This document shows positions 63 to 63,800 of a stretch of DNA of 64,000 nt, one piece after another (the first letter of the stretch is position 1; each line of letters begins with the position of its first letter). The stretch comes from Planctomycetia bacterium. GTDB lineage: Bacteria; Planctomycetota; Planctomycetia; JALXBF01; JBGPMX01. The position numbers were made by a program, and so were the translations under genes. The notes under the pieces were generated by a model. The model was not told where the DNA came from, did not search any database, and saw only the letters and a list, made by a program, of their open reading frames with translations. The DNA is taken from positions 6,152-70,151 of the forward strand of contig DAIOWH010000003.1 in assembly GCA_036758585.1 (NCBI GenBank), read 5' to 3'.

Positions 63-1442
63 TTGCTCCGCATCGGCCGCGAAAGCCAACGCAATTGCCA
101 AGGCGTGACCCGTCGCGAGTTCTTGCAGGCGGGGTCGCTCGGCGCGTTGGGTCTGACTTGGGCCGACCTGTTGCGACTGCGGGCGATCGGCGGCGCCGCC
201 GACTCGCCGGTGCGGTCGGTGGTGCTGGTCTGGCTGTGGGGCGGGCCGAGTCACCTCGACACGTTCGACATGAAGCCCGCCGCGCCCGACGAATATCGCG
301 GCCCGTTCACGCTCACGCGCACCCGTGTCAGCGGCATTCACATCTGCGAGTTGTTGCCACGACTCGCGAAGCTCACCGACAAGTATTCGATCCTGCGTTC
401 GCTGCACTGCGCATCGAACGATCACGGAGTCGCCGGCACGATCGGCCTGACCGGCTCGATCGCCGGATCGATCAACCTGGGCGGCATGACCGCGGTCGGC
501 AGCGCGCGGCCGTGTACCGGTTCGATCGTCTCGCGATTTCGCGCGTCGTCGAACGTGACGACGATGTTGCCGCGTTTCATCGTCGTGGGCGGGCGGTTGC
601 ACCAGGGCAAGAAGCCGATTGCCGGCGAGGGGGGCGGAAAGCTCGGCGCGGTCTACGATCCGTTTCGGCTGGAGTACGACGTCGACCAGGGCGCGAAGGC
701 CCCGGCGATCGCACTGGCCGAGGATGTGCCCGTGGCCCGGCTCGATGATCGCCGCGGACTGCTGCGGTCGCTCGATCAGGCCGACCAGCGCATCGAGGCG
801 CGCCGACCGATCCAATCGCTCGACGGCTTCTACGATCAGGCGTTCTCGCTGCTCATGGCCGGCCCGGCGAAGAAGACATTTGACCTGGCCGGCGAGTCCG
901 ACGCGGTGCGCGATCGTTACGGCCGGTTTCGGTTTGGGCAATCGTGTCTGCTCGCGCGGCGGCTGGTTGAGGCGGCCGTGCCGTTCGTGCAAGTGAACTG
1001 GAGCGCGCACGTCGAGGCCGAAGAGGATGCCGGCGACGGCGGCTGGGACATGCACTATCGTAACTTCGAGGTGCTGCAAGACCGGCATCTGTGGATGCTC
1101 GACCAGACGCTCAGTGCGTTTCTGGAGGATCTCGACGCGCGCGGCCTGCTGGCCAGTACGTTGGTGCTGGCGGTCGGCGAGTTCGGGCGCACGCCGAAGA
1201 TCAATCCGCACGCAGGTCGCGATCATTGGGAGAAGTGCTACTCGGCCGTGATGGCGGGCGGCGGCGTGGTCGGCGGCCGCGTAGTCGGTTCGAGCGACGC
1301 ACTCGGCGAGCACCCGCGCGAACGACCGCTCACACCGGCCGACCTGGCCGCCACGGTGCTCGACCGCTGCGGAGTATCGGTCGCCGGGCTACAGCAGTTT
1401 CAGGTGCAGCCCGAGGGCGAGGTGATTCGGGAGCTGTTTTGA
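63..1442 (+). CDS. DUF1501-family protein (alkaline-phosphatase/sulfatase-like fold) with twin-arginine (Tat) signal
   Basis: 459-aa ORF; N-terminal 'TRREFLQAGSLGALGL' Tat-type signal; 'LWGGPSHLDTFDMKP' and C-terminal 'GRDHW' motifs typical of Planctomycete DUF1501 proteins; TTG start preceded by GGGAGGG; the overlapping minus-strand ORF 3-1313 is low-complexity Arg/Ala-rich. Confidence 0.7.
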   Translation: MLRIGRESQRNCQGVTRREFLQAGSLGALGLTWADLLRLRAIGGAADSPVRSVVLVWLWGGPSHLDTFDMKPAAPDEYRGPFTLTRTRVSGIHICELLPRLAKLTDKYSILRSLHCASNDHGVAGTIGLTGSIAGSINLGGMTAVGSARPCTGSIVSRFRASSNVTTMLPRFIVVGGRLHQGKKPIAGEGGGKLGAVYDPFRLEYDVDQGAKAPAIALAEDVPVARLDDRRGLLRSLDQADQRIEARRPIQSLDGFYDQAFSLLMAGPAKKTFDLAGESDAVRDRYGRFRFGQSCLLARRLVEAAVPFVQVNWSAHVEAEEDAGDGGWDMHYRNFEVLQDRHLWMLDQTLSAFLEDLDARGLLASTLVLAVGEFGRTPKINPHAGRDHWEKCYSAVMAGGGVVGGRVVGSSDALGEHPRERPLTPADLAATVLDRCGVSVAGLQQFQVQPEGEVIRELF

Positions 1443-1493: not shown

Positions 1494-2475
1494 GAAAAAC
1501 AGGACGCAGGCAAACAGGCGGGAACCACGAGGTCGATCTGCGTGGCACTTGCTTGAGCAACCGCCGGCGATCTTCGCATTCGTGTTATTCGTGCCATTCG
1601 TGGTTGTGGTTTGGTTGGCGTGCGGACAAGACGCCGCGTCAGCCGCGCGTCCCGCCCAAGACTCGACCGTTCAACGCTTGACCACCGACGGCAACCTGAA
1701 ACAGCATCCAGCCTGGTCGCCCGACGGCAAGTTGCTCGTTTGTACGATCTACCTCAAGGGCAAGGTTGGACTGGTTCAGCGGTCGTTGGATGTTGCGGAA
1801 TGGAAACATGTGACGCCGCTCGATGATAATCCGGAATACGAGCCGGTGTGGTCGCCCGACGGCGGGCGTATCGTGTTTGTGCAGGACTCGTTGTCGGGGA
1901 CCGACGGACAGCTTCGCCTCTACGTCATGAACGCGGATGGTTCGGAAGCGAAGCAACTGGTCGCGCCGGCGAACCGACCGAACCAAGACGAGCACCCGGC
2001 GTGGTCGCCCGACGGCAAGACCATCGCATTTACGACAACCCGCGCCGGCAACCAGGAGATATACCTGTGTGACGCCGATGGGTCGAACCTGCGGCGCATC
2101 ACGACGTCGCCCGGCGCCGACTCGCACCCGACCTGGTCGCCCGACGGCAAACAGCTCGCGTTTTGTTCGGTGCGGTTCGGCAACATGGAGATTTGTGCGA
2201 TGGGGGCCGACGGATCGGACGTGCGGCGACTGACCGATCACCCGGCGTTGGACTACGCGCCGAAATGGTCGCCCGACGGGCGTCACATCGCGTTCACAAC
2301 GACTCGCGACGGGGATTACGAGGTGTACTTGGTGCGCCCCGACGGCAGCGGGCTCGTGAACCTGACTCGCCACGCGGGGCTGGACAAGGACCCCGCGTGG
2401 GCGCCCGACGGGCGTTGGGTAACGTTTGTGTCGAATCGCGAGGGTCGATTTGACCTGTATCGAATTGGAATCTGA
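1492..2475 (+). CDS. TolB-like periplasmic beta-propeller protein (PD40 / WD40-like beta-propeller repeats)
   Basis: 327-aa ORF; N-terminal hydrophobic segment 'IFAFVLFVPFVVVVWLACG' then AxA site 'ASA'; at least 7 repeats of 'P(A/T/V)WSPDG(K/R)xIAF..R.G..EIY' (PD40 signature). Confidence 0.7.
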   Translation: MKNRTQANRREPRGRSAWHLLEQPPAIFAFVLFVPFVVVVWLACGQDAASAARPAQDSTVQRLTTDGNLKQHPAWSPDGKLLVCTIYLKGKVGLVQRSLDVAEWKHVTPLDDNPEYEPVWSPDGGRIVFVQDSLSGTDGQLRLYVMNADGSEAKQLVAPANRPNQDEHPAWSPDGKTIAFTTTRAGNQEIYLCDADGSNLRRITTSPGADSHPTWSPDGKQLAFCSVRFGNMEICAMGADGSDVRRLTDHPALDYAPKWSPDGRHIAFTTTRDGDYEVYLVRPDGSGLVNLTRHAGLDKDPAWAPDGRWVTFVSNREGRFDLYRIGI

Positions 2476-2965
2476 GAACAAGTTGTGTCGGGCATTGCCA
2501 GCCCAGTTTTCGCTCGGGGGCGGCACAGGCTTAGCAGCCAGACAAGCCCTCCGAAAGTTTTTTGTTGAATTCCACGGTTGCGGCGGGTAACAAGGAGTAG
2601 TTTTAACGGGTCTCTAGACCCGGACCGAGGGGGCGAGTGGTGGCGCGGGATTTCGGTCTGCTGGCGAGGGGCTTGGCGACCGACGGCCTTCATTCCTGCG
2701 CGATCCACACAGTATTTGGTGTTCGGTCGCATTCCGCCCGAAAGCGATAGCTCACGGGGTCGCCGCTGTCGGCGGGTGTGGCACCCTCATTGGTGGCCGG
2801 TGGTTCCCTTCGGGGCACACATCACCATCTTGCGGGTTAGGCAATCCACGCCGCGGCGCGCACGCAGGGCGTCGTTCCCGCACGACCATCGACAACCACC
2901 CACGCAGAGTTTGGGGAATCATGAGTAGTTTTGTGCGCCTGTACAGGGAGTGCTTGGGGGTGTGT

Positions 2966-3108
2966 TGCGCTCCACACTGAAAGGGGTTTGAATTCGTTTA
3001 ACCCGCAGCCGCAGGCGAGGCACAACCAACGCCAGCCATGCCTCGCCTGCGGCTGCGGGTTAAACGACCGAAGCCGACTTCAGACCCTATTCAGTGTGGA
3101 GCGGTACT
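2966..3108. repeat. nested inverted repeat: perfect 26-bp stem / 16-nt loop hairpin (2997-3064) inside a 14-bp outer inverted repeat (2969-2982 / 3092-3105)
   Basis: TTTAACCCGCAGCCGCAGGCGAGGCA ... TGCCTCGCCTGCGGCTGCGGGTTAAA are exact reverse complements; CGCTCCACACTGAA / TTCAGTGTGGAGCG likewise; lies ~100-240 bp upstream of the giant-gene start. Confidence 0.85.
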
Positions 3109-3193
3109 AAGTCGTCCCGACGCGGCCTGTCGTGCATGGTCGCAAGGCGGGGATGCGTGACCGGGTTCAGTTCGAGGGGAAGAAGACGTCACC

Positions 3194-3198
3194 GAGGT
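3194..3198 (+). promoter_or_regulatory. Shine-Dalgarno GAGGT, 6 nt upstream of ATG 3205
   Basis: accGAGGTaagctcATG; same GAGGT core also precedes the second giant gene. Confidence 0.5.
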
Positions 3199-3204
3199 AA
3201 GCTC

Positions 3205-6200
3205 ATGAAGTGGTTCAGAAGACTGCTGTCGCGGAGCGCGGGACAAGAACACAAACGGTCGAGATCGCGCGGGCACGGCGAAACGAGGATGGCCGAGCGC
3301 CGCAGCGCGAGTCCGGGAACCGGCGGCACGCGCCGGCGGCGCACGGGGTCGAGCGACCACGAAGAGCGGCGTCTGGCGAAGCCGCACAAGTTCGCGCTGG
3401 AGCGACTCGAAGAGCGTGTGCTGCTGTCGAGCGACCCGATCAAGACTGCGGCCCTAGATCGACTGCAGACGGCCACCGTGTTGGACCAAGACACGATGAT
3501 CTGGGACAACCAGCAGTCGGACTTCGTTCCGGACGAATGGTTGGTTCGTTTCCGGCTCGACTCGGGATTGACGCCCGACCAGCAACGAGTGCAGGCCAGC
3601 CAGCGGCTTGCCACGCTGGCGCCGAATGCGACGCTGGGCGACTACCTGAACTCGCCGGGCCTGTTCGCAATCCAATCGCCGTCTTCGAGTCCCTCGGCGA
3701 TGGCCGCCCTGTTGAACAGCGCCGCCGATCTGGCGTACATCGAGCCGAACTTCGTCGGCACGTGGCTCGCGGTCCCGAATGATTCGCTGTTTGGCCAGCA
3801 GTGGGCGATGAACAACACAGGCCAGACGGGCGGTACGGTGGACGCCGACATCGATGCCGTGGAGGCATGGGACCTGACGACCGGTTCGGCGAGCGTCGTA
3901 GTTGCGGTGCTCGACTCGGGCGTTGACCTGACTCATCCCGATCTTGCCGCCAACATCTGGGTGAATCCGGGCGAGGTTGCAGGCAACGGGGTGGACGACG
4001 ACGGCAACGGCCTGATCGACGACATCAACGGCTTTGACTTCTTCAGCAACGACAACGATCCGAGCGACCCGCTGGGGCACGGTACTCACGTGGCCGGCGA
4101 CGTCGGTGCGGTGGGGAACAACGGAGTCGGCGTAGCGGGCGTCAACTGGACGACCGACATCATCGCGGTCAAGGTGGGCAATGCCGCGGGTCCGTCGATC
4201 ACCGCCACGACGGCGGGCATCAACTACATCACGGACCTGCGAACGAACCGTGGCATCAACGTGCGGGTGATGAACGCGAGCCTCAACCTGCCGTTCTCGC
4301 AGGCGCAACTGGATGCGATCAATGCCGCCGATGCCGCCGGCATCTTGTTGGCCGCGGCGGCGGGCAACTCAAACTCGAACATCGACGTCGTGCCCACCTA
4401 CCCCGCGAGCTACTCAGCGCCGAACATTATTTCGGTCGCCGCCACGACGCACAACGACGCGAAGGCGAGTTTCTCCAGCTTCGGCGCCAACTCGGTCGAC
4501 TTGGGCGCGCCGGGCGAGGACATCCTCAGTACGGTGCCAACCAGCGGCGCGCTCGGCGACCCGTCGGGCTTCCGGTCGTTGGATGGAACGTCGTTCGCGT
4601 CGCCGATCGTGGCGGGTGCGGCGGCGCTGGGATTCGCGATCAATCCGACCGCGACGCACACTCAAGTGCGCAGCGCGATGCTGAACACGGTCGACCCGGT
4701 CGCTGGGCTGTCTGGTCTGACCGCGACCGGTGGACGACTGAATCTGTACGCCATGCTTCAGGCGTTGCAGCCGTCGCCGCCGCCGTCGGTCACCGTCCCG
4801 GGCAGCGGCGGAATCTATCCGAACTTCGCCGCTCAGAACGAGCCGCAGGTCGTCGTACATCCGCTCGACGCCAGCTATGTCGTGGCGGCTTACAATGATC
4901 GTTCCGAGACCAACCAAAACGGCGTTTCGTATTCCAATGATTTGGGCAACACCTGGTACCACACCGGCGTGCCGTTGCCCGCGCTCGGTACGCTGGCCGA
5001 TACAACGGGCGATGATCCGAGCGTATCGTTCGACTCGCTGGGCCGGCTGTACTACGCATCGAGCGGACTGGAGCCTGACCCCAACGACCCGCTCGCGTTC
5101 CGGGTCGAGCCGAACCAAATCGACGTCAAGTCGTTCCAGCGATCAAACGGCATCTTCGTGAGCCGCAGTGATGATTCGGGCGCGACGTGGGGTGTGAACA
5201 ACACGACCAGCACCGCGACCGGCAGCAAGCCGGCCGTGGCGGTGTTCACAAACACCTTCAGCGGCTCCGGCGACGTGAACTTCGAGACCGGGCCGTTTTC
5301 GATCACCGACCGCACGCCGACCAGTCCGTTCCGCAATCGGGTTTACGTGGTGTGGACGCGGTATCATTCCACGGGCGGCGGCGACATCATGTTCTCCAGC
5401 TCGGCCGACGGGGGCGTTACCTGGAGCACCCCACCGCTGGTGATCACGCAAGGGGTGGCCGGCGCCGGGGCCGGCACCGCGTCCGTCGGCACGACGAACG
5501 TCAACGGCGCCCGCTTAGCCATCGCGCCCAACGGCGATTTGTTCGTGGCGTACAACGCGGGCGGACAGATCAACGTACACCGGTCGCGCGACGCGGGTCG
5601 CACCTGGACCGCGGCGACCACGCCGTTTGGCGCGGGTGCGGCGGTCGCCACCATCGGCAGCCCGCTGCCGAGCGGGAACTTCCGTACCAATGCGTTTCCG
5701 GACATCGAAGTGGGGCTCGATCCCACTACGTCGCTGGCGAATCTGTACCTCGCCGTCGCCGACGACCCCGATCAGATCGGCACCGGCCAGGAAGGCGGCG
5801 ACGTGTACTTCGTGCGGTCGCTCGACGCGGCCACGGTCGCCGACGCCAGCTTTGCGGCGGGCACGACCTGGGGCGCGCCCGTGAAGCTGAACAGCGACGC
5901 GGCGGGCAAGAACCAGACGATGCCGCAGATGGCCGTCGACGAGGTCGGCAACATTGGCGTCGTCTGGTACGACACGCGCAATGACGCCGGCAACCACGAC
6001 CTCGAAGTGTTCCAGCGATCGAGCACCGACGGCGGCGCGATGTTCGCGGCCGACGCCGTGCTGACGGCCGCCTCGTTCGATCCCGACACCGGCCAGTTCG
6101 TGGCCAACGCCAACTTCGGCGACCGCATCGGCCTGGCCGCGTTCGGGGCGACCGGCTACGCCGTGTGGACCGACTCGTCGGTCGGCGAGCAATCGATCTT

Positions 6201-48621: not shown

Positions 48622-48861
48622 TCGGCAATATGTTGTAAGAATGCAACGCGCCGCTAGGTTGGGTGGGATGTACCAGCACGGCGGGTGGGCGGTGGCCTGC
48701 GAGGCGGCGTGTCGGCCGTTGGACTACAGCCTGAGAATGGAACTGTCGAAGTTCCAGCATGTCTCCGGGGGGAGGCTCTCCACGCCTGACGTTTTGCGGG
48801 CGGCCTTGATCGCCCGTGTTCTGCTTCCGCCGGTTACGGACAGGGGCGTTTTTTGGGAATC

Positions 48862-48866
48862 GAGGT
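48862..48866 (+). promoter_or_regulatory. Shine-Dalgarno GAGGT 8 nt upstream of ATG 48874
   Basis: tcGAGGTccaacaaATG. Confidence 0.5.
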
Positions 48867-48873
48867 CCAACAA

Positions 48874-51800
48874 ATGACGAGACCAGGGTCCGTGAACCGG
48901 CCTCCTCACTTGAAGGCGAAACGGCGGACACCGCGCAAGAGTTCCGGCCAAGGCATGTCTTTGGAACGGCTGGAAGAGCGCGTACTGTTGGCGTTGGATA
49001 TTCCGGAAGGCGCCCACCCCATTTTCGCGCCAGGTACTCCCCAGGAGTACATGGCGCAGCATCCTGATCACTTCCGAGAGAACGGGCTGCCTGGCGGGGC
49101 GCTCGGATTCACATTCAACGACGTGGACCGCTGGTCTCAGACGGCCACCGACGGCGCCGGGCTGAACCAGGGCGACCCCACAACGCTGACATGGGGCATC
49201 ATTGCCGACGGAACACTGATCAACACCGGCGCGACGAGCAACCTGATTGCTCGCATGGGCACCATTTACGGCAGCGTGGCGGGGCCGGTCAACGCCCAGC
49301 CGTGGTTCACGGTCTTCCAACAAGTCTTCGATAACCTGCAAGCGAACTCAGGTATCGACTATGTCTACCACGCGGCCGACGATGGCGTTCAGATGACGAA
49401 CGCCAATCGCGGCATCTTGGGAGTGCGCCCCGACATTCGAATCGGCGGTGCGAATATTGACGGGAACTCTGGCACGCTTGCCTATGCCTTTTTGCCGAAC
49501 TTTGGCGACATCGTCATCGACACCAACGACAACTTCTTCAACGACACCGGCGGCAACTCGCTGGGTTTTCGCAATGTGCTGGCTCACGAAGAGGGGCATG
49601 GCGTCGGACTCGGTCACTCTTGTCCGGTCGATCTGACGAAGCTCATGGAGCCGACCGTCACGTTCGCGTTTGACGGCCCGCAACATGACGACCTGTTGGG
49701 GATAAACCGCGGCTACGGCGATCGCCTGGAACCGAACGACAACACACTTTTTGCGACGGACCTGGGCGTGCTCAACGGGACGACTGCTTCCCTGAGCAAC
49801 GTCACCATCGACGACGATTCGGACCTCGATCTGTTTCGCTTCAGCGCCACAGGCCCCACCACGACAACCGTCACCGTTAACCCGTTTGGGTTCACCTACC
49901 CGTCGGGGCCCGAGATCGCGACCAGCACCTGTGGGGCGAACAATCCGAACTTCGACTCACTGAATCAGAGTGACCTGAGTCTGGAGATACTCGACAGCAC
50001 CGGCGCGATCATCGCCAACGCCAACGCCAACGGTCTGGGCGTGGGCGAGAACCTGGCGAACGTGACGTTGCCGGCGGCCGGCGACTATTTCGTGCGACTG
50101 CGTGGGGCCCAGAATGCCGCTCAGTTCTACACGCTCAGCGTGAACGTGGCCCAGTCGGCTACGGGCGGCGGCAAGAGCGGCAGCACCGTGCAACTGACGT
50201 CGGTGACGGCCGATGACGTGTTGAACACGCCGCGCGACACGTTCGGATTTGTGCTGCGCCGCAGCGAGATCGACGCGCTGGGAGGGCAGCCGGCCCTCGA
50301 TATCCGCGACCCCGTGTTGTTGCCCGACCCGGTGAACGACATCAAGGCGTTTACCGTGTTCTTCGACGGCGCACTCGACCCAATCAGCGCCGAAGATGAG
50401 GCGAACTACGACCTGCGCAGCACCGGCAATCCGGTGACCGCGTCCGATGATGGGCTGTTCGATACCACCGACGACTTCCAGTACCACGTCACTCCGCGCT
50501 ACATCACGACGCTCGACAACCCTGAAGACCTCGACACCAACCCCGACCCGGCCGTCGTGCTTGAAGTCCAGCTTCCGGCGGGACTGACCGAGTTCCCGTC
50601 CGGGCGGTTCCGTCTGACGGTGCGCGGCGGCGACCCGGTGCTGGGCGCCAACAACCTGCCGATTAACTCACAGGACGCGGGACCCGATGAAGTGTTGTAT
50701 TTCAAGACGGTTCATCGCCCCACGGCGCAGCCGCCCGACGGAGTGACCGCGAACGTCTATGTCGACGTGACCAACACGACGGCGCCGTTCCTTGGCACAA
50801 GCGCCGATCCGTTCAATGACATCCAGACCGGATTGAACGCAGCGGCGCCCGGCCAGACGGTGTTGGTGCGGTCGAACCTCGCCAGGGTCCCCTACGTTCA
50901 GGACGATCTGGCAAACGACGGCGTGCAGGATTTCGACCGCAATATCACAGTGCCTGCCAATGTTCGGCTGGTGTTCCAGCAGGGCGCGATCGTAAAGCTG
51001 CGCGATGCGATCATCGACGTGTCGGGTGCGAATGCGCAACTCGACGCGATTGGCACGTTCGACAACCCGGTCGTGTTCACCTCCTTTGCCGATACGCTGC
51101 CCGACACCGGCGCTCAGACCGGCGCGCCGAAGGCTGAAGACTGGGGCGGAATCGTTTTCCGCGCCGGCTCGGATAGCGCCGGGTCGCGGATAGAGTTTGC
51201 CGAGATACGCTACACGGGCGGCGAGGTCGGCAGCGTGCGCTATGGCGCGGTGCACGGCCTGACTTCCCAGCCGACGGTCACGAACACCATCATCACCAGT
51301 GCGGGGCAGGCCGCGTTCAGTTTCGACTTGTTGAGCTTTACCGGCACGGGTCCATCGCTCGCCGGCAACTTCCTGGAACGCAACACCATCAACGGCGTGC
51401 TCGTGGTGATCCCGCAGGGGACCACGGTGTCGAACGTGCCTGGCCAAGCCGTCATGTTCGATGACCCGATCGACCACGTCTTCACCCAAAGCCTGACGAT
51501 TCCCGGCGGGGCCAGCGTAACGACCAGCAATACGAACCTGAAACTGTCCAAGGCCGTCATCGATCTGCGCGGCGCGGCCGCAGCAGGAACGCCGTCATCG
51601 CTTACGGCCATCAACACCCACTTCACGTCGATTCAAGACGACACGACCGGTCGGACCGCCGACGAAGTGGGCAACCTGCAGACCGACGCCACCGGCAACG
51701 GCAGCGTGCTGGCGCCGCAGCCTGGCGACTGGGGCGGCATCGACGCAACCACCGACGATCCGACGCTGCCCCTCGGTCCGTCGCTGACCATTCTGAGCGA

Positions 51801-54800
51801 TGTGGACAACGCTGGCGCGCTGGCGGGCCAGATTCAGCCTGATCCGGCGCTCTCGCGTGTGGCCTTCGGCGCGGGCACGTTCCTGCGCGGCGGGTTTCCC
51901 CAGATCATCCGCGGGAACATCGACTACGGCGAGACCTTCGCCAACGATGGCAACTTGGCAGACTCGCACGGCAACACGATCAACATTCAGGGCACGACCA
52001 TCGCGTCCAGTTTGTCGGCGGGGCTGTTCCTGACCAACGCGGGCGGCGTGTTTCAGGACAACGATTTCCTGAGCAACAGCGACGCCGCAATCTCGATCGA
52101 CACCACCTCGTTCCACATCCTGCGCGACCCGGTGTTCCGGCGCAACATCACGCAGGGAAACCAACTCAACGCGCTGGCGATCCGGTCTGGGACCTTCGGC
52201 GGTGGTGCGGACCGCCTCTACGAGTTCAACGATCCGGACATCGTACACGTCGGCAGGGGCAACCTCGCGATCAGCGACGGTTCGGGGCTCGCCGTGCTCA
52301 CACTCCATCCGGGAGTCGCCTTCAAGGCTCAGTCGGGCGCGGGGCTGACGGTGACAGGCGCCGACTATCGCACCGCGTTCAACAATGTCGGCAACGGAGC
52401 GCTGGTGCTGGACGGCGACCCTGACGGTGCGCCGTTCCCCGGCAAGCTGGTGGGGCGATTCACCACGTCGTTTGCCGGCCTGAACAACGACTTGTCGTTC
52501 ACCGCGCGGGAACCGCTGCCGCGCGGGAACTTCACGATTCGGTTTGTGGCCACCGGTGCGTTGAGCGCCTCGGTGGTTCCAGGAGCGGGCATCGGGGGCG
52601 CCGATCGCATTGACATCACCATCGCAGCCGGTACGACCACTGCGAAACATGTGCGCGACGTGGTACTTCGTACGCCGCGCGTAGCGGCCGTGCTCGACGT
52701 CGCGCTCGCGGCCGATTCCGACGGCACCGGCCTGGTTGCCGCCCTCGCCGAGACCGCGCTGCCGTTGACTCCAGACGAATCGCCGCGCCCGATCCAGTTG
52801 ACCACGATCGCCGACGATTCGATCGGGCCTTCGGTGTTTCGGTTCGGCCAGGATGGCCGGCCGGGCCGAGCCGGCGTCGATGACGACGGCGATGGCTTGA
52901 CCGACGAGGGCGATGAGCTTGGGACCGCGGCCAGCGACGACGAGGCCGTTCCGCAAACCGACGCGCAGGGCAATGGAAGCAGCACGCCCACGGCAGCCGA
53001 CTTCTGGACCGGCCTCAATTACAGCTACTTCTCCAATGATCTCGTGCCCGAACGAGACATCAACGGCAACGGTGCGCTCGACCCTTGGGAAGACCTGAAC
53101 TCGAACGGCGTGTTCGATCAGCTTGAAGAAACGCTCGACTGGCGCACGAACAATACGGCTGGACTGGACATCGGCGAGGACCACGACCAGGACGGCGTGC
53201 TGGAACGCATCGTAGGCAACGTCGCCAACTTCATCGAAGTTCGGTTTGCAACCAACGGCATCCTGCACGAAGGACCACGACACAGCGCCACACTGGCCGA
53301 CTCGCACGATGGCGAACTCGGCGCCACAGGCGTCAACGAGAGCATCGCCACCGCGACCCCGCTGGGCAACATCGGCGGACGCGACGGCAATGATCAGGTG
53401 CCGTCGTTCCGGACCCCGAACCGCGCGCTGCGGGCGACCGGCAACATTGCCTCCGGCGCCGATGTGGACTTCTGGTCGTTTACGGCCAACCCCGGCAGTA
53501 CGATCACCATCGACATCGACCACACCACGACCCGTTGGGCCGGCGACAATCACCTCGACCCGATCGTCTCGCTGTTCTACGTAAAGCGCGACGATCCGGG
53601 CGCGGGCAAGTTGATTCTCTGGGCCGTCGCCAACAATAACGACTCCGCGGTGGACACGGTTCTGGATCCCCTCGAGCAAGACGACACCGATCCCGCCCTG
53701 ATCAACATCAACGTCCCGGGTATCGCGGCGGTCGACGACACCTACTACGCGGCCGTCACCGCGTTCAACAACCTGCCCGATTTCTTGTTCGCGCTGCCGC
53801 TCAGCGGCCCGGACATGCAACTCGCCAACTACGCCTGCACTGCGCGGCCGGACGGCGGGTTCGACGTCGTGGTACTTGACTTCGACGCGATTCGTTCGGA
53901 CGACACGTTCGACGAGAATAATGCGGTCGCCACGAACTGCCCGGGCCTGACCGGGCCTAACACAGGAGGGGGCGACAACGTCGGACAGTATTCGCTGCTC
54001 ATCCGTGAAACGCAGCGCGACATCGTCTATCCGAGCGGCTCGTTCGAGGTTACCAACAGCCAGTTTCGCAACATCACGGGCGACGCCGTTCGTATCGCCA
54101 CTCCGGCCGACCCGACCATGCGCGATCGGATCGCGCCAGCCGTTCACACCGGTGGTAACACGGCGCTGCCGACCAACGGCACCGGACCGACGCTGCTTGC
54201 CACCGGGGCTCGCATTGAGAACAACGAGTTCGCCAACATCGGCGACGACGGCGTGGAGCTGATCGGCGATCCGGGCGCCGGCCGCTCCATCCGGCACGAC
54301 TGGGTGTTGAACAACACGTTCTTCAACACCGGTACGGGCCTCGACCTGCGCAGCCGACTGGGCGCGACCGTGCTCAACAACATTTTCGCCGACGTGACCG
54401 GCACCGCGATCGCCAGCGACGGCACTTCGGCAGTGGGGTTGGGTGCAGGCACCGACAGCCTGGTCGTGTCGAACAACTTGTACCACTCGAACGGCGCGAA
54501 TGGCTTGTTGGGCACTGTGTTCTTCCCGAATCTGCAATCGCCTGCGAGTGATCCGCTGTTCTTCGATCCGACCGGCTTGTTCCCCGACCTGCGCATCACC
54601 GATAATTCGGCGGCGGTGGACAGCAGCCTGAGCGATCTCGAAGACCGCCTGGGCAACGTGCGTTTGTGGATGGGGGTGGACCCAAGTTCGCCAGTACCCG
54701 TTGGCGGCCTGAGGCCGGAGTCGCTGCTGGTCCCCGAACGTGTGGGACGCGACACCGCGTTGGACCGCAACCAGATTGAGCGCATCGATCTACCCGAGCT

Positions 54801-57800
54801 TTCGAACCCGAATCTCGGCTTGGGTGAGGATCCGTTCTTCGATATTGGCGCCAACGAGGCGACGGATTTCCTGCCGCCGCAGGTAATCCGATTGGGCCTC
54901 GCGCCGCAAAGCGACACCGGCGAAATCAACGAAGTCGAACCGCTGCGCACGCGGCAGTCGCGGCCAACCTTCCGCGGACTCGTGGTTGATTTCACCGAGA
55001 CTGTGGGACGGCCGGAGCTGGACGAGGTAGCCGGCCTGCAGGTGGACATTGACGTGGATGGCGATGGCTACGACGACGGCGCCGCGACGACCAGCCTGTT
55101 CTTCGACCCCGAAACCGGTTTTCCGGTGTTCTATAACGTCCGCAACAACGGGCTGGTCGTGGTGCGCGAAGTCAGTCTGCTGCCGACGGGCGCCGAGTTT
55201 CGACGCGTCGGCGTGTTCGAGGTTCAGTCAACGCTTGATATTGTTGACTCGGCCGACCTGACCATTCGCGCGCGTGTGCTCGACAAGGCCGGACGGTCAT
55301 CGGCCGACCGACCGTTGCGCATCGCGGTCGATACCGTGCGACCGGGGGTTCAGACCGTCACGTCGAGCCTCAGTTCGTCGGACCTGGTCATGGAGTTCGA
55401 CGAGCAGGTGCTGCTGGCCGGCAATAACCTTCAGGAGAACCTACAGCTCGAGGTGACGACCGGCGCGGCGGTCACGGCGGCGCCCGACCTGGCCAACGCG
55501 GCCCTTGTAGGCAACAGCGGCGGCGCGGCGGGCGACCTGTTCGGCACACAGCACACAGTGAATGACTTCGTCATCGCGCCGCTTCCAGTGGCCGGGTCCG
55601 ATGGTGCAGCCTTCTTCCGTGGCCCCTTCAACAATACAACGGGCGCCGATCGGCCCGTCATCACCGTCAACGAAACATCGGGCGCGAACCTGGACCTCGC
55701 ACCGGGGCGACTCTTCGAATTCCCTGGCCCAAACAACGACCTGTTGATTACCGGGCGCGGCGCGCTGCCCGACGACACGGTGGTGTCGGTCGAGTTCCGC
55801 CACGTCGCGCTGCCGAATCAGCCGCTGGGCGTGAGCGTCGTTCGCACCCAGGCGTCGTTGCCCACCGCGCTGGCCGGCGTGGACAACGACATCGTGTTCA
55901 CGGCGCACCCGACGAACTTCCCCGGCTCGGCGGGCAACGCACTGCGCATCGAGTATCGGGTCGCCGGCCTGAACACACCGCTCACCGTGGCGGTGAGCGG
56001 CGCCGCCATCACGGTGAACGTCGCGACCAACGCGACCGGCCAACCGACTAGCACGGCGGCCCAAGTGCGCGACGCGGTCAACGCAAGCGGGGCGGCCAGC
56101 ACGCGCGTATCCGCCGCACTGGCGTCGGGCAACAGCGGCACCGGCGTGGTCGCCGCCCTGCCCACCACGAGCCTCAGCGGTGGACGAGACGCCATTGGGG
56201 TTACGCTCGACACGGACGGAGCAGGCGCCGTCGATAGCACGACGAGCGGGCCGAACGCCGCCACGACTGTCCGCGACGCCATCAACGCCGCGGCCGGCAC
56301 ATTGGTAACCGCCTCGCTGACGCCGACCGACACGGGCGCCGCCAACACCGGCGCCGGCGCCGTCGCCGCGCACGCCGCCGCACCAATGAACACGGGCGAG
56401 TTCACCATATCGCTCTGGACGTTCATCCGCGACCACGGCGCCGGTCCGGGCGTGAGCAACGTCGATTTCCTGTCGCCCACGCGCCGCCCGCTGGCGACGA
56501 AACGCGACGCGACAACAGGCCAGGGTTGGTCGCTGGTGCTCGAGAACATCCCCACCGACTCGCCGGAGCAATTTCTGGTGTTCGAAGTGTACGACGCCGC
56601 CGGCGCACGTACGCACCGCATTCAATCGACCAGCGCCGTGCCGTCGAACCAGTGGGCGCATGTCGCCCTGTCGTATAACCCGGTCACCGCTGAGTGGCGG
56701 TTCCATCTGCTGCAATCCGCCTCCACCGTAATGGACCCGGACGGCGACGGCGCGGGCAACGACCGCCTGCACTTCGTGGCTGCTCAACCGGGGGCGATCG
56801 GCAACAGCGTATCGATCGACTACACGTTGGGGGCGGCCGAGCAAGTGTTCGTCACCGGCAGTGCGGTCACGGTGCAGCTCGTGGCCGGCACGACGACCGC
56901 AAACCGTGTGTTGCAGATGGTCGCCGCCGACCCAAACGCCTCGCAACTATTTGTCGGGCGTTTGGCGCCCGGCAGCAACGGAACCGCAGCGATAAGCCGG
57001 GCCGTGGCGACACGGTCGCTGACGGGCGGTCAAGGCCCTGCGGTGGTCACATCCGGCGAGACGCGGGCCGAGGTCACGATTGGGGCGGCGGCGTCCGCCG
57101 TCCGGTTCCAGGCGGTTCAAGCGGGCGCGGGCGGCAACGCGATTCGGGTTCAGTACACTGCGGGCGGCACGGCCCAAGTTTCCGTTGCCGGCAGCGACGT
57201 CACCGTGCAGGTGACGGGAACCACGACCGCGGCCCAAGTCGTGCAGTTGATCAACGCACACACTCAAGCCTCGCAACTGCTCCTTGCCCGGTTGCCTGAT
57301 GGATCGATCGGCGGCGGGCTAGTCGGCGCGGTTGGGTTCACGTCGCTCACCGGCGGCGTGTTCCCGCTCTCGGCGGCGACCACGGGCGACCTGCTGATCG
57401 GCGCCGAGGCGGTCCCGGCGGCGTCGGCCACGTTCGACGGGTTCATCGACGAAGTACAGATATGGAACCGCGACGTGTCGCTGGACGAAATCAGCCAGCT
57501 TCCGAGCGCGGAGCTTCCGCGAGCCATCGCGGTGCGCAACGTAACCGGAAGCAATCAGGACCTGCCGATCGTCGCCGTTTCGCTGACGACAGTGGCTGGC
57601 CGCACTCAGGTGACCGCGACCGTCGACGGCGATCCGACGACCGCCGGCGTTCAAGTCCTGCCGCGCGGCAATGTGTACGAGCTGGAAGTATTCGCCCAGC
57701 CGACGCTGACCGACGTGGCGGGCAACCGCATCAACGGTCGAGTCATTGCGTTCGGTGTGGGCGAGGACGTCTTCGACCTGAACACGTCGCAGTTCAACGC

Positions 57801-60800
57801 GCCCCCCGAGTTCCCGCTCGACCCGAACGGCCGCAATGACGCGCCGACCACGAACGTGTTTACCGATCTTGGCACAACCGCCCACCGCGCCGTTGTACTC
57901 GACTTCTCACAAAGCGATCTGACGGTCACTCCAGTCTCGGCGGCCCCGGCGCTGCCGGCTGACGAAGATTGGTTCCGCGTAGATGTGTTGGCTGCCGGCG
58001 AGTTCACGGCGGGCCTCACGGCTCGCGACCCCAACAACGACGGCGTGCTGAACGCCGACGAAGGAATAGTGGTCGAGGTGTTTCGAGCGGCCGACACAAC
58101 GACTCCGGTCGCCGCGGCCACACCCAGCCAAGTCGCCACGGCGACTCGGACTTCCGCGGTCTCCGTTTCGGCCCGCGAGCTGCTCTTCTTGCGAGTGCGC
58201 ACCGACGACGGCGACGACTTCAATCGTTATGAGCTGGAGTTGATCGTCAACGATTTGTTTGACGCGGCGGCCGGCTTCACGCTGCCGCCGGCCACAGGAC
58301 CGTTGCCGATCGACCTGGCGGGCCGGAACGATGACGCTCAAGCAATCATGGCGGCTACGCTGATCACAGCGTCGCTCGCCCCAGGCAATTCGGGGGCGGG
58401 CTTCGTGGCGCCGCTCGACTTCCCGCTGGCCGGCGGAGTCGATACGCCCGCCACACAGGCGACTCTCACCACCAGCGTGGCCGGTAACGACAACGACCTC
58501 GTGTTCACCGCAGTACCAGTGGGCGCCGCCGGCAATGGGATTCGCGTGCGGTATGTGAACGCCGGCGTCAATCAGCCGCTGGGCGTGACAATCGATGTAG
58601 CGAACCGCATCATCACGGTTAATCTGGCGACGAACGGCGCTGGCACAGTAACGACGACCGCCAATGACATTCTGCAACTGTTGCAGGTGCGAGCGACCGA
58701 CCTGGGCGGCGTCGCCGATCGCTCGCTCAGCGACTTCGTGGGCGGATCGGACCTCACCATCGCGGTCGACCCGGTGAGCGGCGCGCCCGACGTCGACTTT
58801 TATCGCATGACAAGCACGGCGGTGGGCACGCTGTCGCTGTTCATGAACGTGCGCGACCCGAACGGCGACGGCCAACTCGACGACGGCCTGGCCAGCGGCC
58901 GCGATGAACGCATCGACCTGGCGATCGTCAGTCCCGCCGATCCGTTGGGTGCGGCGCTGGCGACGGCGACGCAGTCGGTCCTGTCGCCGTTCCTGTTCGA
59001 GATTGTGAATCAGTCGGTGAGCACGGTCGGCCAGGAGTTCTGGGTCCGTGTGCGCGGCACGAGCGCTGAGTCGGCCAACGCCTACGACCTCCGAATGGTG
59101 AACGATGATCGGTTCGAGTTGGCCGCGTCTGTGGCGCCGGTCGGCGACGGCATTTTGCCGGACGATCCGGACGGTCGCAACGACGTGGTCGCCGCAGCCA
59201 CCGACTTGGGCACGGTTTTCACATTCGCCGAAGACGACCTAACGATCACGTTGGGCGACGGCGTGGTTCGCGATACCGACTTCTTCCTCTACACTGCGCC
59301 CGACGACCTGGTGTTCAACGTGTTTGCGGACGTAGCCGACATCAACCGCAACGGCGCGCTCGACGCCGCCGAGACGCTTGGCCTCGAAGTGCTCGACCCC
59401 ACGGGCACGACCGTACTGGCCACCGGGTCGGTGTTCGGAACGTTCCCCGGCAGTGTGATTGTCGATTCGGGGTTTGTTCAGCTTGCGTCGGGCCAGTCGG
59501 TGCTGATCCGCGTGTTCGGTTCGGCCGGTGTCGCCAACAGCTACGATCTGCGGGCCTTGGCCGACGACCGGTTCGATCATCCGTTCCGGTCGGGCACGGT
59601 CGCGAAACCAGGCGGCGTCGATCCGGCCGGTCGCAACGACTCGTCGGACGACGCCAGCGGCGCTGGGGCCGATGATGTACGGCGCACCGATTTGGGTACG
59701 GTCGTTCACCTGACCGAGAACTTCCTGCGTGTTTCCGACGAAGACAGCCACAATTTCCTGTTCACCGCACCGACGCCGGCGGCGGGTCTCGACGGCCAGA
59801 CGCTCACGATCGACGACGGACTGAACCCGCCGACTATCTTTGAGTTCGACAACAATGGCAGCACGGCGCTGGGCCAGGTGGGAGTGAACTTTGCCGCGTT
59901 GACGACGGCCGATGAGCTGGCCGCAGCGATCCGCAGCGTCATCAACGGGATCGGTGCGGCCCTGAACGCAACGGCGTCGGGCAGCGGCTCGCAGGTCGCC
60001 GTGTCGAGCGCGATCCGCGTCGTGAGTGGTGCGTTCCCGATCGCCGCGGCGCACGACGGCGATTGGTTCCGCGTGACGGCCGCCGTATCGGGTGCGCTCG
60101 GCATCCACGTAGACCTGATCGACGCCGATCGCAACAACCAGATCGACGCCGTCGAAATCCTCGGACTCGAACTGTACGAACTGGACCCAATGACCAACCG
60201 GGCGGGCGATCGGCTCGCGGTTGGCGTGCTCGACGTGGTGAGCCGTCAGGTTCGTATTGACGGCTACCCTGCGATGGACGGCGAATCGTTCCTGGTGCGC
60301 GTCCGTGAGGGTGTGAACTTGCCCGTCGCCGCCGTGTCTGGCGGGGCGACGGTGACGTGCAATCTACAGCCGTTGGGGCCGCCAGCGCCGGCCCCCGTTG
60401 GGCAACCAAACGACGACCTTTCGAGTGGGCCGTTCAACCTTGGCTTCACGTTCGAGTTCTTCGGCAACAACTTTACGCAGTTCTTCGTGAACAATAACGG
60501 CAATATCACGTTCACCGCGCCGCTGTTCTCATTTACGGCAACGGGCTTTCCGAACCCCTTTGGTATTGCGATGGTGGCCCCGTTCTGGGCGGACGTCGAC
60601 ACCCGCGGTGCGGGTTCCGGCCTGACGCGACTGCAACAAGGCACCAACCCATCGACCGGGCGACCGTTCATCCAGGTGGACTGGCCCGATGTCGGATACT
60701 TCAGCAGCAACGTTGACAAGCTGAACGACTTCTCACTGTACATCGAAGATGATCCGTTGGGCGACCTCATCTGCTTCGACTATCGCGATATGGAATGGAC

Positions 60801-63800
60801 AACGGGCGATGTGTCGGGCGGCACCAATGGGTTTGGAGGTACGGGCGCCGCTATTGGTTTCGATGCGGGCGATGGAGTGAACTTCATCAGTTTGGGCCGA
60901 CCCAACGATGCGACCGGAGTGGCGGCGTTTGCGAACCGGACTGAGGTTTTCGTGCTTGGGCCAGGCGGTGTGCCGGGAGCGCCGCCGAGTCCGCCGCCGC
61001 CGGGAACGGTCAACGCGTCGAATGACGGCGGCAACGACCAGGTTTCGCCTGCCGCCGCGATCAATCCGCTGGACACCCGGGACGTCGCGTCTGTCGTTCA
61101 AAGTGTGGACAACAACACCGGTGCATCGGTGGTGGATGTCCTCGCGTCGAACGACGGCGGCCTGACGTTCACACGCACGCGGTTTACATCTACGTTTGAC
61201 GCGCTCGGATCGGGTCGTCGTTCGAGTCCCGACGCGGTGTTCGACGCCAACGGGAACCTGTACGTCGCGTACGCATTCGATAATGGAACGACGCGTCGAG
61301 TCGTGGTGACACGCAGCACCGACCAGGGCCTGACGTTCAGCGCGCCTGCGTTGCTTACTCCACTAGGGGCCGGGGCTGTTCCCGAGACAGTCTCGGTCGC
61401 GACTGGCCGCGACGTCGTGAACCCGAACCAGCAAAACGTATTCGTCGCTTGGAGTGAAGTAGGCGGCGGTACGGGACTCGGCCAGCGCATCGCTGTAGCC
61501 GGCGCGGCGGCATCGACCCCGGGTGGCACGATCAACCCGTTCAGTTTCACGGTCACCAAGGACGCATCGTCCAATGCAGCGACCGGTCAACAACCGCGCA
61601 CGCCCGACATCGGCGTGGACCGCGCCGGACGGGTCTTCGCCACGTGGACCGACTACGGGTCGAGCCCCAACCCGATTCGTCTCGCACGGGACGATAATTT
61701 CTTTGGAACCGGTCTGGCGGGGTTTGGTTCGGCCAGCGTGGTGACCACGAACCACGTCGGGTTCCGGCGATCGGTCCCAGCGCAGCCGCAGCGCGGAGTC
61801 AGTGCCAGTCCGTCGATTGCCATCGATCGCAGCGATGCGGCCGATCCCGACTTCGGCCGGAATTCCGGGCGAATCTACGTCGCGTACACCGAAACCGGTC
61901 TGGACGGCGTCGGGGACCTGGACACGTTCCTGCGCTTCTCGGACGATGCCGGCGCCTCTTGGAGCCGCCCACAGCGGATCAACTCGCAGAACCGGGCGAG
62001 CCAGTTCAATCCTGCGATCACCGTCGATTCGACCACGGGACATGTTTTTGCCGTCTGGCAGGACACACGTCGCGATGTGGCGAACACCCTCGCCGAGCCG
62101 TTCATCGCACAGAGCATCGACGGCGGGCTGAACTTCCAACTCGACGTGGCACTCGCCACCGCGCCGTCTAGTCAGGCGGGGAATGCCGAACCGATCGAAG
62201 ATTTCGGCGATCGGATGGGCATTGCCGCGGCCAGTCATGTCGTGTTCGCCGCATGGGCCGACAACACGGCTCAGGCTACGGATTTGGAAACACTCACGAA
62301 CCGGCTGGTGCAGGTGGGCGGGCGCAATTTCTACAACCTGACGGTCGACAACTCCGATCGGCGTGAGTTGCAGACGGTGGACCGTGAGTTCGACGCGACA
62401 CTGAACTCGGGGAACCTCTTTGCATCCACCGACGGCGTCGCCGGCATCGGAGTCGCCGGGCCGCTCGCCACATTGGACGAGTTCACCGGCGCGGGGACCG
62501 TGCAGACTGAGATCGATACGCTGCCGGCGTTCGTTCAGCGCGTCGCTGGGGCGATTGGCGATATCGACTTCAGCCCAACCGGCGAATTGGTGGGCGGAAC
62601 GGCCTTCGTCAGTTCCGCACAGCCTGGCGAGACGCTAGTGTTCGTCGATCCGGACACCGGCCTCGTGTACAACCAGGCGACTATCACCGGAGTGGGACTG
62701 CCGCAGAGTTTCTCGGTCACCGCGCTCGAGTTCCAACCGGGCAGCGGCACGCTGTTCGTCGCCTTGGACTTTGATCCGGGGACCAAGGGATCGCCGTCGC
62801 AGTTGGGTACGATCAACGTCGCCGGTTGCGGCGTGGGAACTTGCACGGTCAACTTGCTGGGCCAGACGAACGTCGGCGAGATAGGCGGGCTGGCGTTCAA
62901 TCCGGTCAGCGGCGAGCTCTACGGCGTCACGTCGACCAGCGTCGGTGGCGGCGACTTTGTCGTGCTCAGCACAACGACCGGTGCGGCCATCTCGACGGTG
63001 CCGTCGGGCCGCCGCGACTACACCGGACTCGAATTCTCGCTCGATGGACTCGCGCTCTACGGCGTGCTGGGGCCGGATGAAACCATCGGCGCCCCCGGTG
63101 ACCTGGTGTCTATCGATCCGTTCACCGGCCAAGCCGGCACGATTGGCGCAACAAGTCTGATCGATCCGCGCACGGCCGGCCCATTGCCAAACGCGATCAG
63201 CGGCATCAGCTTCCGACCGCGGCGCAACGAGCGGCCGCAAGCGGGCACGGGCGGCGGCCGCTTGGCTCAGGTCACGGAAGCCGACATGACGCTGCTCGAA
63301 GGCGAAGAGGATTGGTATCGCATTCAGATGCCGGTCGCGGGCGGGTTGACCGTACGGCTGGACCTGCCCGACTCCGTACCAACCGATCGAAACTCGGACG
63401 GCCGAGACAACGACGGCGATACGCTAGTCGACGAGGGCGACGAGTTCGTGTTTGGCTTCCTCGACGCTCAAGAACAACTTGGACTCGAACTGTACGACAG
63501 CACCGGCGCAGTCCTGCTGGCCACGGGCGTGGTCGACGACCTGGCCGCGGTCGACGGCAGCGGATTCGGCGTGTTCATCGACCACCAATCCGTCACGCCG
63601 GTGGCAGGCGCCGTAGACCCATTCCTTTTGGTTCGAGTGTTCGGCGCCGCCGGATCGTTCAACGAATACGACCTGGTCGTAAGGAACAACGACCGATTCG
63701 ACCAGGCTTTGGTCCCGTCGGCCCTGTTTGGGTCGGACGCGGCCGGCCAGCTTGTGACGGTTAATGGCAGCACCGGGCTGACCACCGCCGTCGGGCCACT

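Follow-up and report, generated by a model that had tools for sequence, protein, structure and literature searches.

The biology of repetitive extragenic palindromic (REP) sequences has been established mainly in Proteobacteria. REPIN-RAYT systems, or REPtrons, are reportedly also treated by Nunvar 2010 and Ton-Hoang 2012. Our reference description of these systems is that of Bertels & Rainey 2011 (PMC3116915). Related TIRtrons, whose TIRYT genes are Y1 genes flanked by inverted repeats other than REPs, are described in sections of Di Nocera et al. 2013 (PMC3733652), which also mention REP dimers inside longer palindromes in Anabaena variabilis and Halothiobacillus neapolitanus. Class 3 HuH-Y1 proteins occur in Planctomycetes and Acidobacteria (Quentin et al. 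2018, PMC6006769), and the PIF/Harbinger-IS5 (PHIS) superfamily includes miniature inverted-repeat transposable elements (MITEs) with a C|TNA|G target duplication (Han et al. 2015, PMC4482050). Here we analyze a nested hairpin upstream of a giant gene in a 64,000-nucleotide stretch of a Planctomycetia bacterium genome (contig DAIOWH010000003.1; "the window" hereafter). The hairpin is very probably a damaged copy of a ~144-bp non-autonomous element in which a REPIN-like doublet sits inside a target-duplicating MITE shell. The kind of element is known, and we found no description of this family; its unit sequence did not appear in this context in the literature searched.

The hairpin lies in a 729-nt intergenic region and is built from two inverted repeats. 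The inner repeat has 29-nt arms with 100% complementarity (2994-3022 and 3039-3067) and 16 nt between them. The outer repeat has a 14-bp perfect core at 2968-2981 and 3090-3103 (CGCTCCACACTGAA and TTCAGTGTGGAGCG) and, with mismatches, extends to 29 nt at 86% (2968-2996 and 3075-3103). A preliminary description, made from the DNA letters alone, had recognized the nesting and reported a 26-bp perfect inner repeat (2997-3022 and 3039-3064, 16-nt loop), which is real and is contained in the longer 29-nt repeat; the 14-bp outer repeat that it listed exists as well, with coordinates (2969-2982 and 3092-3105) that were off by 1-2 nt. Folded as RNA, positions 2960-3110 form one nested hairpin of -104.2 kcal/mol, compared to a mean of -48.4 for shuffled sequences (z = -13.3; 0 of 200 shuffles as stable), and the inner 74 nt folded as DNA reach -41.7 kcal/mol (z = -12.3). 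As the preliminary description had supposed, the hairpin is far beyond chance; the reason is its origin as one member of a repeat family rather than evolution at this locus. No second copy was found within the window, even with 3 mismatches or with a hidden Markov model (HMM) of the unit.

The retained copy spans 140 nt (2968-3107). It starts with the outer left arm of the shell on the plus strand (2968-2993, CGCTCCACACTGAAAGGGGTTTGAAT), which pairs with 3075-3103 and is missing the consensus terminal GTAC. The inner left unit (2994-3022, plus strand, TCGTTTAACCCGCAGCCGCAGGCGAGGCA) is REP-like and conserved across Pirellulales. It is followed by a 16-nt spacer or loop (3023-3038, CAACCAACGCCAGCCA) and by the inner right unit on the minus strand (3039-3067), the exact reverse complement of 2994-3022. 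The outer right arm of the shell (3068-3107, plus strand, CCGAAGCCGACTTCAGACCCTATTCAGTGTGGAGCGGTAC) contains an unpaired CCGAAGCCGAC insert and ends in the canonical terminal GTAC at 3104-3107.

The whole composite is a repeat family. The 21-mer across its inner/outer junction (GGGTTAAACGACCGAAGCCGA) was located at 64 metagenome loci, of which 63 belong to the low-complexity Joint Genome Institute (JGI) dataset Ga0185317. BLAST returned 67 near-full copies with 76-97% identity to window positions 2968-3112; for more than 60 copies, identity over this stretch lies at 82-97%. Column conservation rises from ~0.35 to at least 0.8 at the window equivalent of 2960 and drops after 3111, so that the family has sharp boundaries. 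The ~144-bp consensus reads C-TNA, then GTAC(C/T)GCTCCACA(C/T)TGAAAGGGGTYYGAAT and the unit, followed by the 16-nt loop, the inverted unit, CCGAAGCCGATTTCAGACCCTATTCARTGYGG...RGTAC and TNA-G. Its ends can be summarized as GTACYGCTCCACAYTGAA... and ...TTCARTGYGG..RGTAC, with the terminal sequences also written GTACYGCTCCACA and GTACYGCTCCACAYTGAAAGGGG. At 144 bp the consensus is below the ~300-bp limit for a MITE, has no open reading frame (ORF) and carries terminal inverted repeats. All copies of the composite have the same inner/outer junctions.

Several irregularities recur within the family at the inner hairpin. The 16-nt loop is oriented relative to the asymmetric outer arms as in the window in 39 copies and is flipped in 20 (for instance L078, L056 and L104); loop orientation largely tracks subfamily, a pattern that suggests that the segment inverted across the 29-bp arms. 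In L059, L061, L063, L065, L066, L072, L105 and L106, GGGTTAAAC(G) or its complement is duplicated in short tandem precisely where the inner unit ends on its outer side; L106 has three copies. Slippage, or nicking and rejoining, could have left such scars. In L047, L064, L073, L091, L103, L104 and L109, the composite breaks off at the inner hairpin or within it, on one side or the other. The flipped loops, duplications and truncations fit an unstable or enzymatically nicked palindrome, and are no proof of activity. In L048 (6840-7050), the element copy and its 3-bp duplication are enclosed by a ~25-nt direct repeat of flanking DNA (GAAACGCGGCACGGCACGTGAA).

To define the insertion site, we used the flanks of 35 non-redundant copies with GTAC at both ends. 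The 3-nt flanks are identical on both sides in 19 of these. Both flanks read T?A in 20 copies, and the middle base is the same in 19 of the 20 and complementary in none (chance rate for the same base 0.37, P = 8.6e-8). Position -4 is C in 30/35 copies and position +4 is G in 33/35. The flank repeat is a direct duplication and not an extension of the palindrome, which identifies it as a target-site duplication of TNA at C|TNA|G, with a 5-bp duplication of CTNAG as an equally possible reading. Eukaryotic NuwaII elements of the PIF/Harbinger-IS5 superfamily pose the same ambiguity (PMC4482050), and IS1031-group IS5 elements use 3-nt targets (PMC2516522). The window copy has the right half of the duplication only: the TAA at 3108-3110, followed by the G of the target at 3111.

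An orthologous site without the element is present in a relative. JGI contig L116 is syntenic with the window, carrying the DUF1501 gene, the PD40 gene (82% amino acid identity) and the start of the giant gene, and its intergenic region aligns with that of the window to the left and to the right of the insertion; what is missing is precisely the element. The junction in L116 reads ...GGCTGTGTTGAAC-TGT-GTCGCC..., where the window has ...GGGTGTGTTG[CGCTCC...GGAGCGGTAC]TAA-GTCGTCC.... On the right, the canonical GTAC|TAA|G of the window is aligned to C-TGT-G. On the left (GTGTGTTG, 2960-2967), GTTG is flank DNA common to both contigs, and AAC, the left copy of the duplication and the terminal GTAC are missing (~10 nt). 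We favor reading this left end as an insertion followed by a small junction deletion; an aberrant insertion is possible instead. Searching with the N-terminus of the giant protein for a second orthologous site retrieved distant S8 peptidases only, and the P0126 locus was not syntenic downstream. The window contains no tRNA or tmRNA that could have served as an insertion target.

The comparison with L116 also bears on the start of the giant gene. ATG 3205 and its GAGG Shine-Dalgarno sequence (together 3194-3207, plus strand) are identical in L116, which has neither the element nor GTG 3094. As the preliminary description had noticed, GTG 3094 falls in the outer right arm; it is thus inside the insertion and, judged from this alignment, cannot be the start. 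The real start is ATG 3205, which that description had rightly preferred and had placed ~100 bp beyond the hairpin; the measured distance from the end of the element is 98 nt. On the same comparison, the hairpin is no conserved part of the leader of the giant gene.

The core unit is widely distributed as well. We scanned the inner-stem 20-mer CTGCGGCTGCGGGTTAAACG against one genome per species (596 Gb) and found at least 44 loci in at least 16 genomes, where by our own arithmetic ~1 match is expected by chance. All genomes among the matches listed are Planctomycetota metagenome-assembled genomes (MAGs), mostly of Pirellulales, labeled Pirellulaceae, Pirellulales, Roseimaritima, Anatilimnocola, Pirellula, Planctomycetaceae and similar. 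A viral origin was probed in IMG/VR, where the 20-mer has no match. The aligned loci have a 27-nt unit in common, CCTCGCCTGCGGCTGCGGGTTAAACGA, which in the window core (27-29 nt) reads TCGTTTAACCCGCAGCCGCAGGCGAGG. The flank diverges right after ...TTAAACGA, whereas the CCTCGC side faces a variable spacer that is usually followed by a second, inverted unit. With the unit HMM we found ~20 doublets in other genomes, all of them head-to-head, with spacers of 0-125 nt except for one pair in L038 that is ~520 nt apart; singletons also occur. A single unit folds like shuffled sequence (z = +0.6 to +0.7), and only the doublet is a hairpin: six doublets folded as DNA gave z values of -10 to -12, those listed being the window doublet, one each in L018 and L045 and two in L014. 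The unit has no GTAG head, and its conserved end is TCGTTTAACCCG. Tandem arrays of partial or degenerate units with a period of ~18-30 nt occur in L021 (3782-3870), L036 (1453-1628), L043 (4244-4381) and L111 (~536-643), and one such array lies directly upstream of a RayT-like gene. We rejected a CRISPR repeat as their identity, since these tandem runs have no unique spacers and the copies are otherwise dispersed.

In other genomes, the doublets bracket a gene for a RayT-like protein. In L014 (MAG STL-PLA34), one doublet ends at the stop codon of a 206-aa ORF (315-935, minus strand) and the other starts 14 nt before its ATG, and L023 carries a 75%-identical gene with the same doublet on each side. 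Homologues at 62-72% identity in L111, L112, L114 and L115 are also bracketed, by variant units that retain the outer TCGTTTAACCCG and differ in the inner part (TCGTTTAACCCGGAGCCARCGGCGACGGCG in L114 and L115, CTCGTTTCACCCGCAGCCAACGGCGAGG in L111); the downstream doublet follows the stop codon directly in L114 and L115 and after 8 nt in L112. This brings the number of loci with a RayT-like gene bracketed by repeats to six, all of them outside the genome of the window. One copy of the gene is present among the four STL-PLA34 loci examined. Because unit doublets tightly bracket RayT-like genes elsewhere, we conclude that the core of the window element is the repeat partner of a REPtron-like HUH-Y1 system.

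The encoded protein belongs to a family with 3933 homologs at E <= 1e-5, a large number of them annotated by JGI as "REP element-mobilizing transposase RayT". Residues H103 and H105 (HUH motif, EHVH) and Y173 (YVEENP) are invariant in this family. All 20 members tested match the NCBIfam model REP_Tyr_transpos, with a best E-value of 1.8e-13 that is still below the curated cut-off, as is the match to Pfam Y1_Tnp. According to its AlphaFold model (mean predicted local distance difference test score, pLDDT, 81.5), the 206-aa protein has an HUH-Y1 transposase fold: the 30 best PDB matches are the TnpA proteins of ISDra2, IS200 and IS608, and Escherichia coli RAYT (4er8).

Compared to REPIN-RAYT systems, the planctomycete family shares short repeats in many copies outside genes, inverted doublets that fold into hairpins, the same repeats on both sides of an HUH-Y1 gene (in other genomes), and a repeat that varies with the protein between lineages. 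It differs in that the single unit is neither an imperfect palindrome nor headed by GTAG or GT[AG]G, in stems of 25-29 bp, in a protein that matches the RAYT model only below threshold, and in its host, a planctomycete and not a proteobacterium; moreover, the window copy lies inside a target-duplicating shell. TIRtron repeats, as covered in the sections of PMC3733652 that deal with them, likewise form moderately abundant families arranged as dimers or clusters. Those sections report no target-site duplication for the enclosing palindromes, in contrast to the present shell, and name no Pirellulales family. The class 3 HuH-Y1 proteins occur in the same phylum as the present element, but their published motifs (NHVH, YV[VI][AENY]EQ and a CnGA foot; PMC6006769) do not match the EHVH, YVEENP and structures ending ...AAACGA found here. 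We therefore rejected class 3 membership; the RayT-like family is, from these motifs, probably another subclass.

The shell resembles the PHIS MITEs in being small, without an ORF, bounded by terminal inverted repeats, present in many copies and missing from an empty site, and in its 3-bp TNA duplication with flanking C and G. In contrast to those elements, no autonomous partner or DDE transposase was found in the loci examined, the NuwaII elements are eukaryotic (PMC4482050), and the interior here is a REP-type doublet rather than a deleted transposase gene.

We propose that the window element is a composite with two parts of different origin. The core (2994-3067), a head-to-head doublet, would as single-stranded DNA form a hairpin of the type recognized by HUH-Y1 enzymes, and would be the substrate of a RayT-like enzyme. 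The shell (2968-2993 and 3068-3107), with its imperfect terminal inverted repeats ending in GTAC, would have been moved in trans by a DDE transposase of IS5/PIF-Harbinger type in a cut-or-copy-and-paste manner, since the TNA duplication at C|TNA|G is the signature of this type. Because all copies have the same inner/outer junctions, a single capture event may have created the composite, which would then have been amplified as one unit. In the lineage of the window, a copy would have inserted between a conserved upstream non-coding block and the ribosome-binding region of the giant gene, and ~10 bp at its left junction would have been lost later. With the left terminus gone, this copy is probably immobile now. 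The preliminary description had listed a small mobile or REP-like element among its options, and this was the correct one.

Several observations weigh against this reading. The element is not a classical REP, since one unit alone forms no hairpin and is without a GTAG head. The empty site rests on the single example of L116, and the window copy has a non-canonical left junction and only the right half of the duplication. In the window and in ~0.7 Mb of Ga0185317 loci we found neither a RayT-like gene nor a DDE transposase with matching ends, and a search of all loci examined for pairs of shell termini 0.5-4 kb apart gave one chance match, inside a gene, and no autonomous partner. Covariation in the outer arms is weak (6 pairs altered on both sides versus 6.2 in shuffles) and could reflect inheritance within subfamilies; given these counts, we make no claim of selection for an outer-stem RNA structure. 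Finally, the insertion may since have come to influence the giant gene. Should the element be transcribed from a promoter upstream of it, the leader would carry a 29-bp perfect duplex, plausibly an RNase III target or a roadblock.

A bolder form of our proposal takes the irregularities at the hairpin as scars of ongoing HUH activity. Either a REP doublet, nearly invariant because a domesticated RayT-like HUH enzyme still acts on it, was captured in a DDE-type MITE shell that reached at least 60 copies, or the RayT-like enzyme itself makes the TNA duplication, which would be a new mode for Y1 enzymes; the flipped loops, the GGGTTAAAC duplications and the truncations in the hairpin would be the marks that it left. 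We regard this form as unlikely; in the first of its two variants, if true, one 144-bp sequence would be the substrate of two unrelated transposition chemistries.

Somewhat less likely again is that the element is a host-domesticated repeat, selected for a generic function of the kind proposed for the REP/BIME (bacterial interspersed mosaic element) sequences of E. coli, namely mRNA 3'-end protection, termination or the binding of nucleoid proteins or gyrase, with mobility only its means of arrival. The strong conservation of the core could be read in this way. Genomes placed in different genera carry an almost unchanged 27-nt unit, copies are strictly extragenic, and in 34 copies of the composite the inner stem is 98% paired with 19 of its 29 pairs never varying, while the outer stem is 86% paired (one of its pairs is UA in 23 copies and CG in 8). 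Recognition by a cognate RayT explains the conservation of the unit equally well, and many copies are truncated or duplicated at the hairpin. Of the 67 copies, 64 are intergenic (37 between tandem, 10 between divergent and 7 between convergent genes). A lack of bias in their placement also tells against domestication: 20 have the same orientation as the neighboring genes and 16 the opposite one, and neither the 5' nor the 3' side of genes is favored, the median distance being 50 nt to the stop codon upstream and 80 nt to the start codon downstream.

It is also improbable, and more so than domestication, that a single enzyme accounts for the whole element, with the RayT-like HUH protein moving the entire 144-bp composite, the TNA duplication as a by-product, and no DDE transposase involved. 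In its support, no transposase other than the RayT-like protein was found linked to the element or a part of it, the loci examined yielded no DDE partner, and nicking followed by rejoining could have produced the GGGTTAAAC duplications that recur where the unit ends on its outer side. The Y1 HUH transposases with solved structures (IS608 and ISDra2), however, place single-stranded DNA beside a fixed tetra- or pentanucleotide without duplicating the target. The doublets that occur across the order outside the shell show no duplication either, and the C|TNA|G duplication fits the PIF/Harbinger-IS5 superfamily (PMC4482050).

The gene-specific role that the preliminary description had put forward, a transcription attenuator or RNA stability element for the 45-kb mRNA (a roadblock would be a further variant), is now very unlikely. 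The position of the hairpin 98 nt upstream of the ATG within the long intergenic region and its very stable predicted RNA fold speak for this role, and a conserved non-coding block lies further upstream, so that the promoter may lie upstream too. The dispersal of copies through all gene contexts and in both orientations speaks against it: with at least 44 core loci and 64 junction loci, the family shows the many dispersed copies that the preliminary description itself had named as telling against a gene-specific regulator. L116, which keeps the ATG region and the upstream block, also has no such hairpin in its leader. A promoter and terminator scan of 2300-3400 found no sigma-70-like promoter and no U-tract terminator, as would be required of a terminator or attenuator, and an Rfam scan of 2000-4000 at a permissive E-value gave no family, only sub-threshold miRNA-hairpin models (best 29 bits against a threshold of 100).

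We see hardly any chance for an integron attC-like recombination site. Such sites are imperfect palindromes of similar size, and the base of the inner stem, GTTTAAC...GTTAAAC, fits the core motifs RYYYAAC and GTTRRRY; these 7-nt motifs are, however, all that fits. The stem is perfect and is without the extrahelical bases typical of attC, the copies are single between ordinary genes in both orientations rather than in cassette arrays, and the unit brackets an HUH-Y1 gene and not an integrase, with no arrays of sites seen beside intI.

That the hairpin is a palindromic chimera of assembly can practically be dismissed: one contig switches between copies inside the hairpin and another ends within it in adapter sequence, but the same structure recurs in independent assemblies and at over 60 loci in other datasets, where its flanks are clean and unique. 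The first of these contigs, L001, is an independent assembly of the same strain in which the hairpin is present and identical to the window up to the hairpin loop; beyond the loop it has 7 substitutions in the right half and then an unrelated flank. This switch to another copy (L001 6523-6805) is either a chimeric assembly or recombination between copies. A third element copy is found at L001 1-110, ~60 nt upstream of an ftsH-like gene. The second contig, L002, ends at window position 2980 in the Nextera adapter CTGTCTCTTATACACATCT (2733-2752).

For the annotation of the locus, these results remove a tempting error, as the hairpin is not a dedicated regulator of the 45-kb gene; they fix the start codon at ATG 3205, and they show that the repeat breaks or chimerizes assemblies here (L001, L002). 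The window element itself is of modest interest, and the family has more to offer to studies of REPIN/RAYT evolution. A REPIN/RayT-type system is documented across Pirellulales, with units that are not self-palindromic and are conserved across genera, and in one lineage the units ride inside a MITE that makes target duplications. Together, the unit or doublet as substrate and the 206-aa protein with H103, H105 and Y173 as enzyme provide a concrete pair for examining HUH-Y1/repeat co-evolution outside the model systems. The 29-bp perfect duplex in the possible leader of a giant gene is, in addition, a natural experiment on the effects of insertions on expression.

The surroundings of the element showed several further features. 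Upstream of the hairpin are the DUF1501 gene (63-1442) and the PD40 beta-propeller gene (1492-2475), both of which are recovered by a simple gene caller based on third-codon-position GC content (GC3). The giant ORF, which this caller recovers as well, lies downstream, with an N-terminus that is an S8 peptidase and a LEERVLLS motif near it. This motif and the DUF1501 gene point to Planctomycetota. The non-coding block at 2725-2925 is ~95% identical to L116 ~2075-2270, above the value for the neighboring PD40 coding sequence (82% at the amino acid level). It is not coding, because the alignment contains indels of 1, 2 and 5 nt, and it has no Rfam match; it could be a structured RNA or belong to the leader or the promoter of the giant gene, and is a candidate for each. 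Some 130 nt past the PD40 stop, a 13-nt stretch (GTTTTAACGGGTC, 2603-2615) stands where the L116 alignment has a gap, and with it the window forms a palindrome, GGGTCTCTAGACCC, at 2611-2624 that is not found in L116. A 31-nt inverted repeat (90%) of CACGAAT repeats spans 1464-1494 and 1577-1607; its first arm ends at the annotated PD40 ATG, its second lies in the PD40 signal-peptide codons, and the motif was seen once more in L102. Lastly, the GC3-based caller predicts a second very large ORF at 48853-63999, which starts 230 nt after the first giant gene and encodes at least 5048 aa before running off the window.

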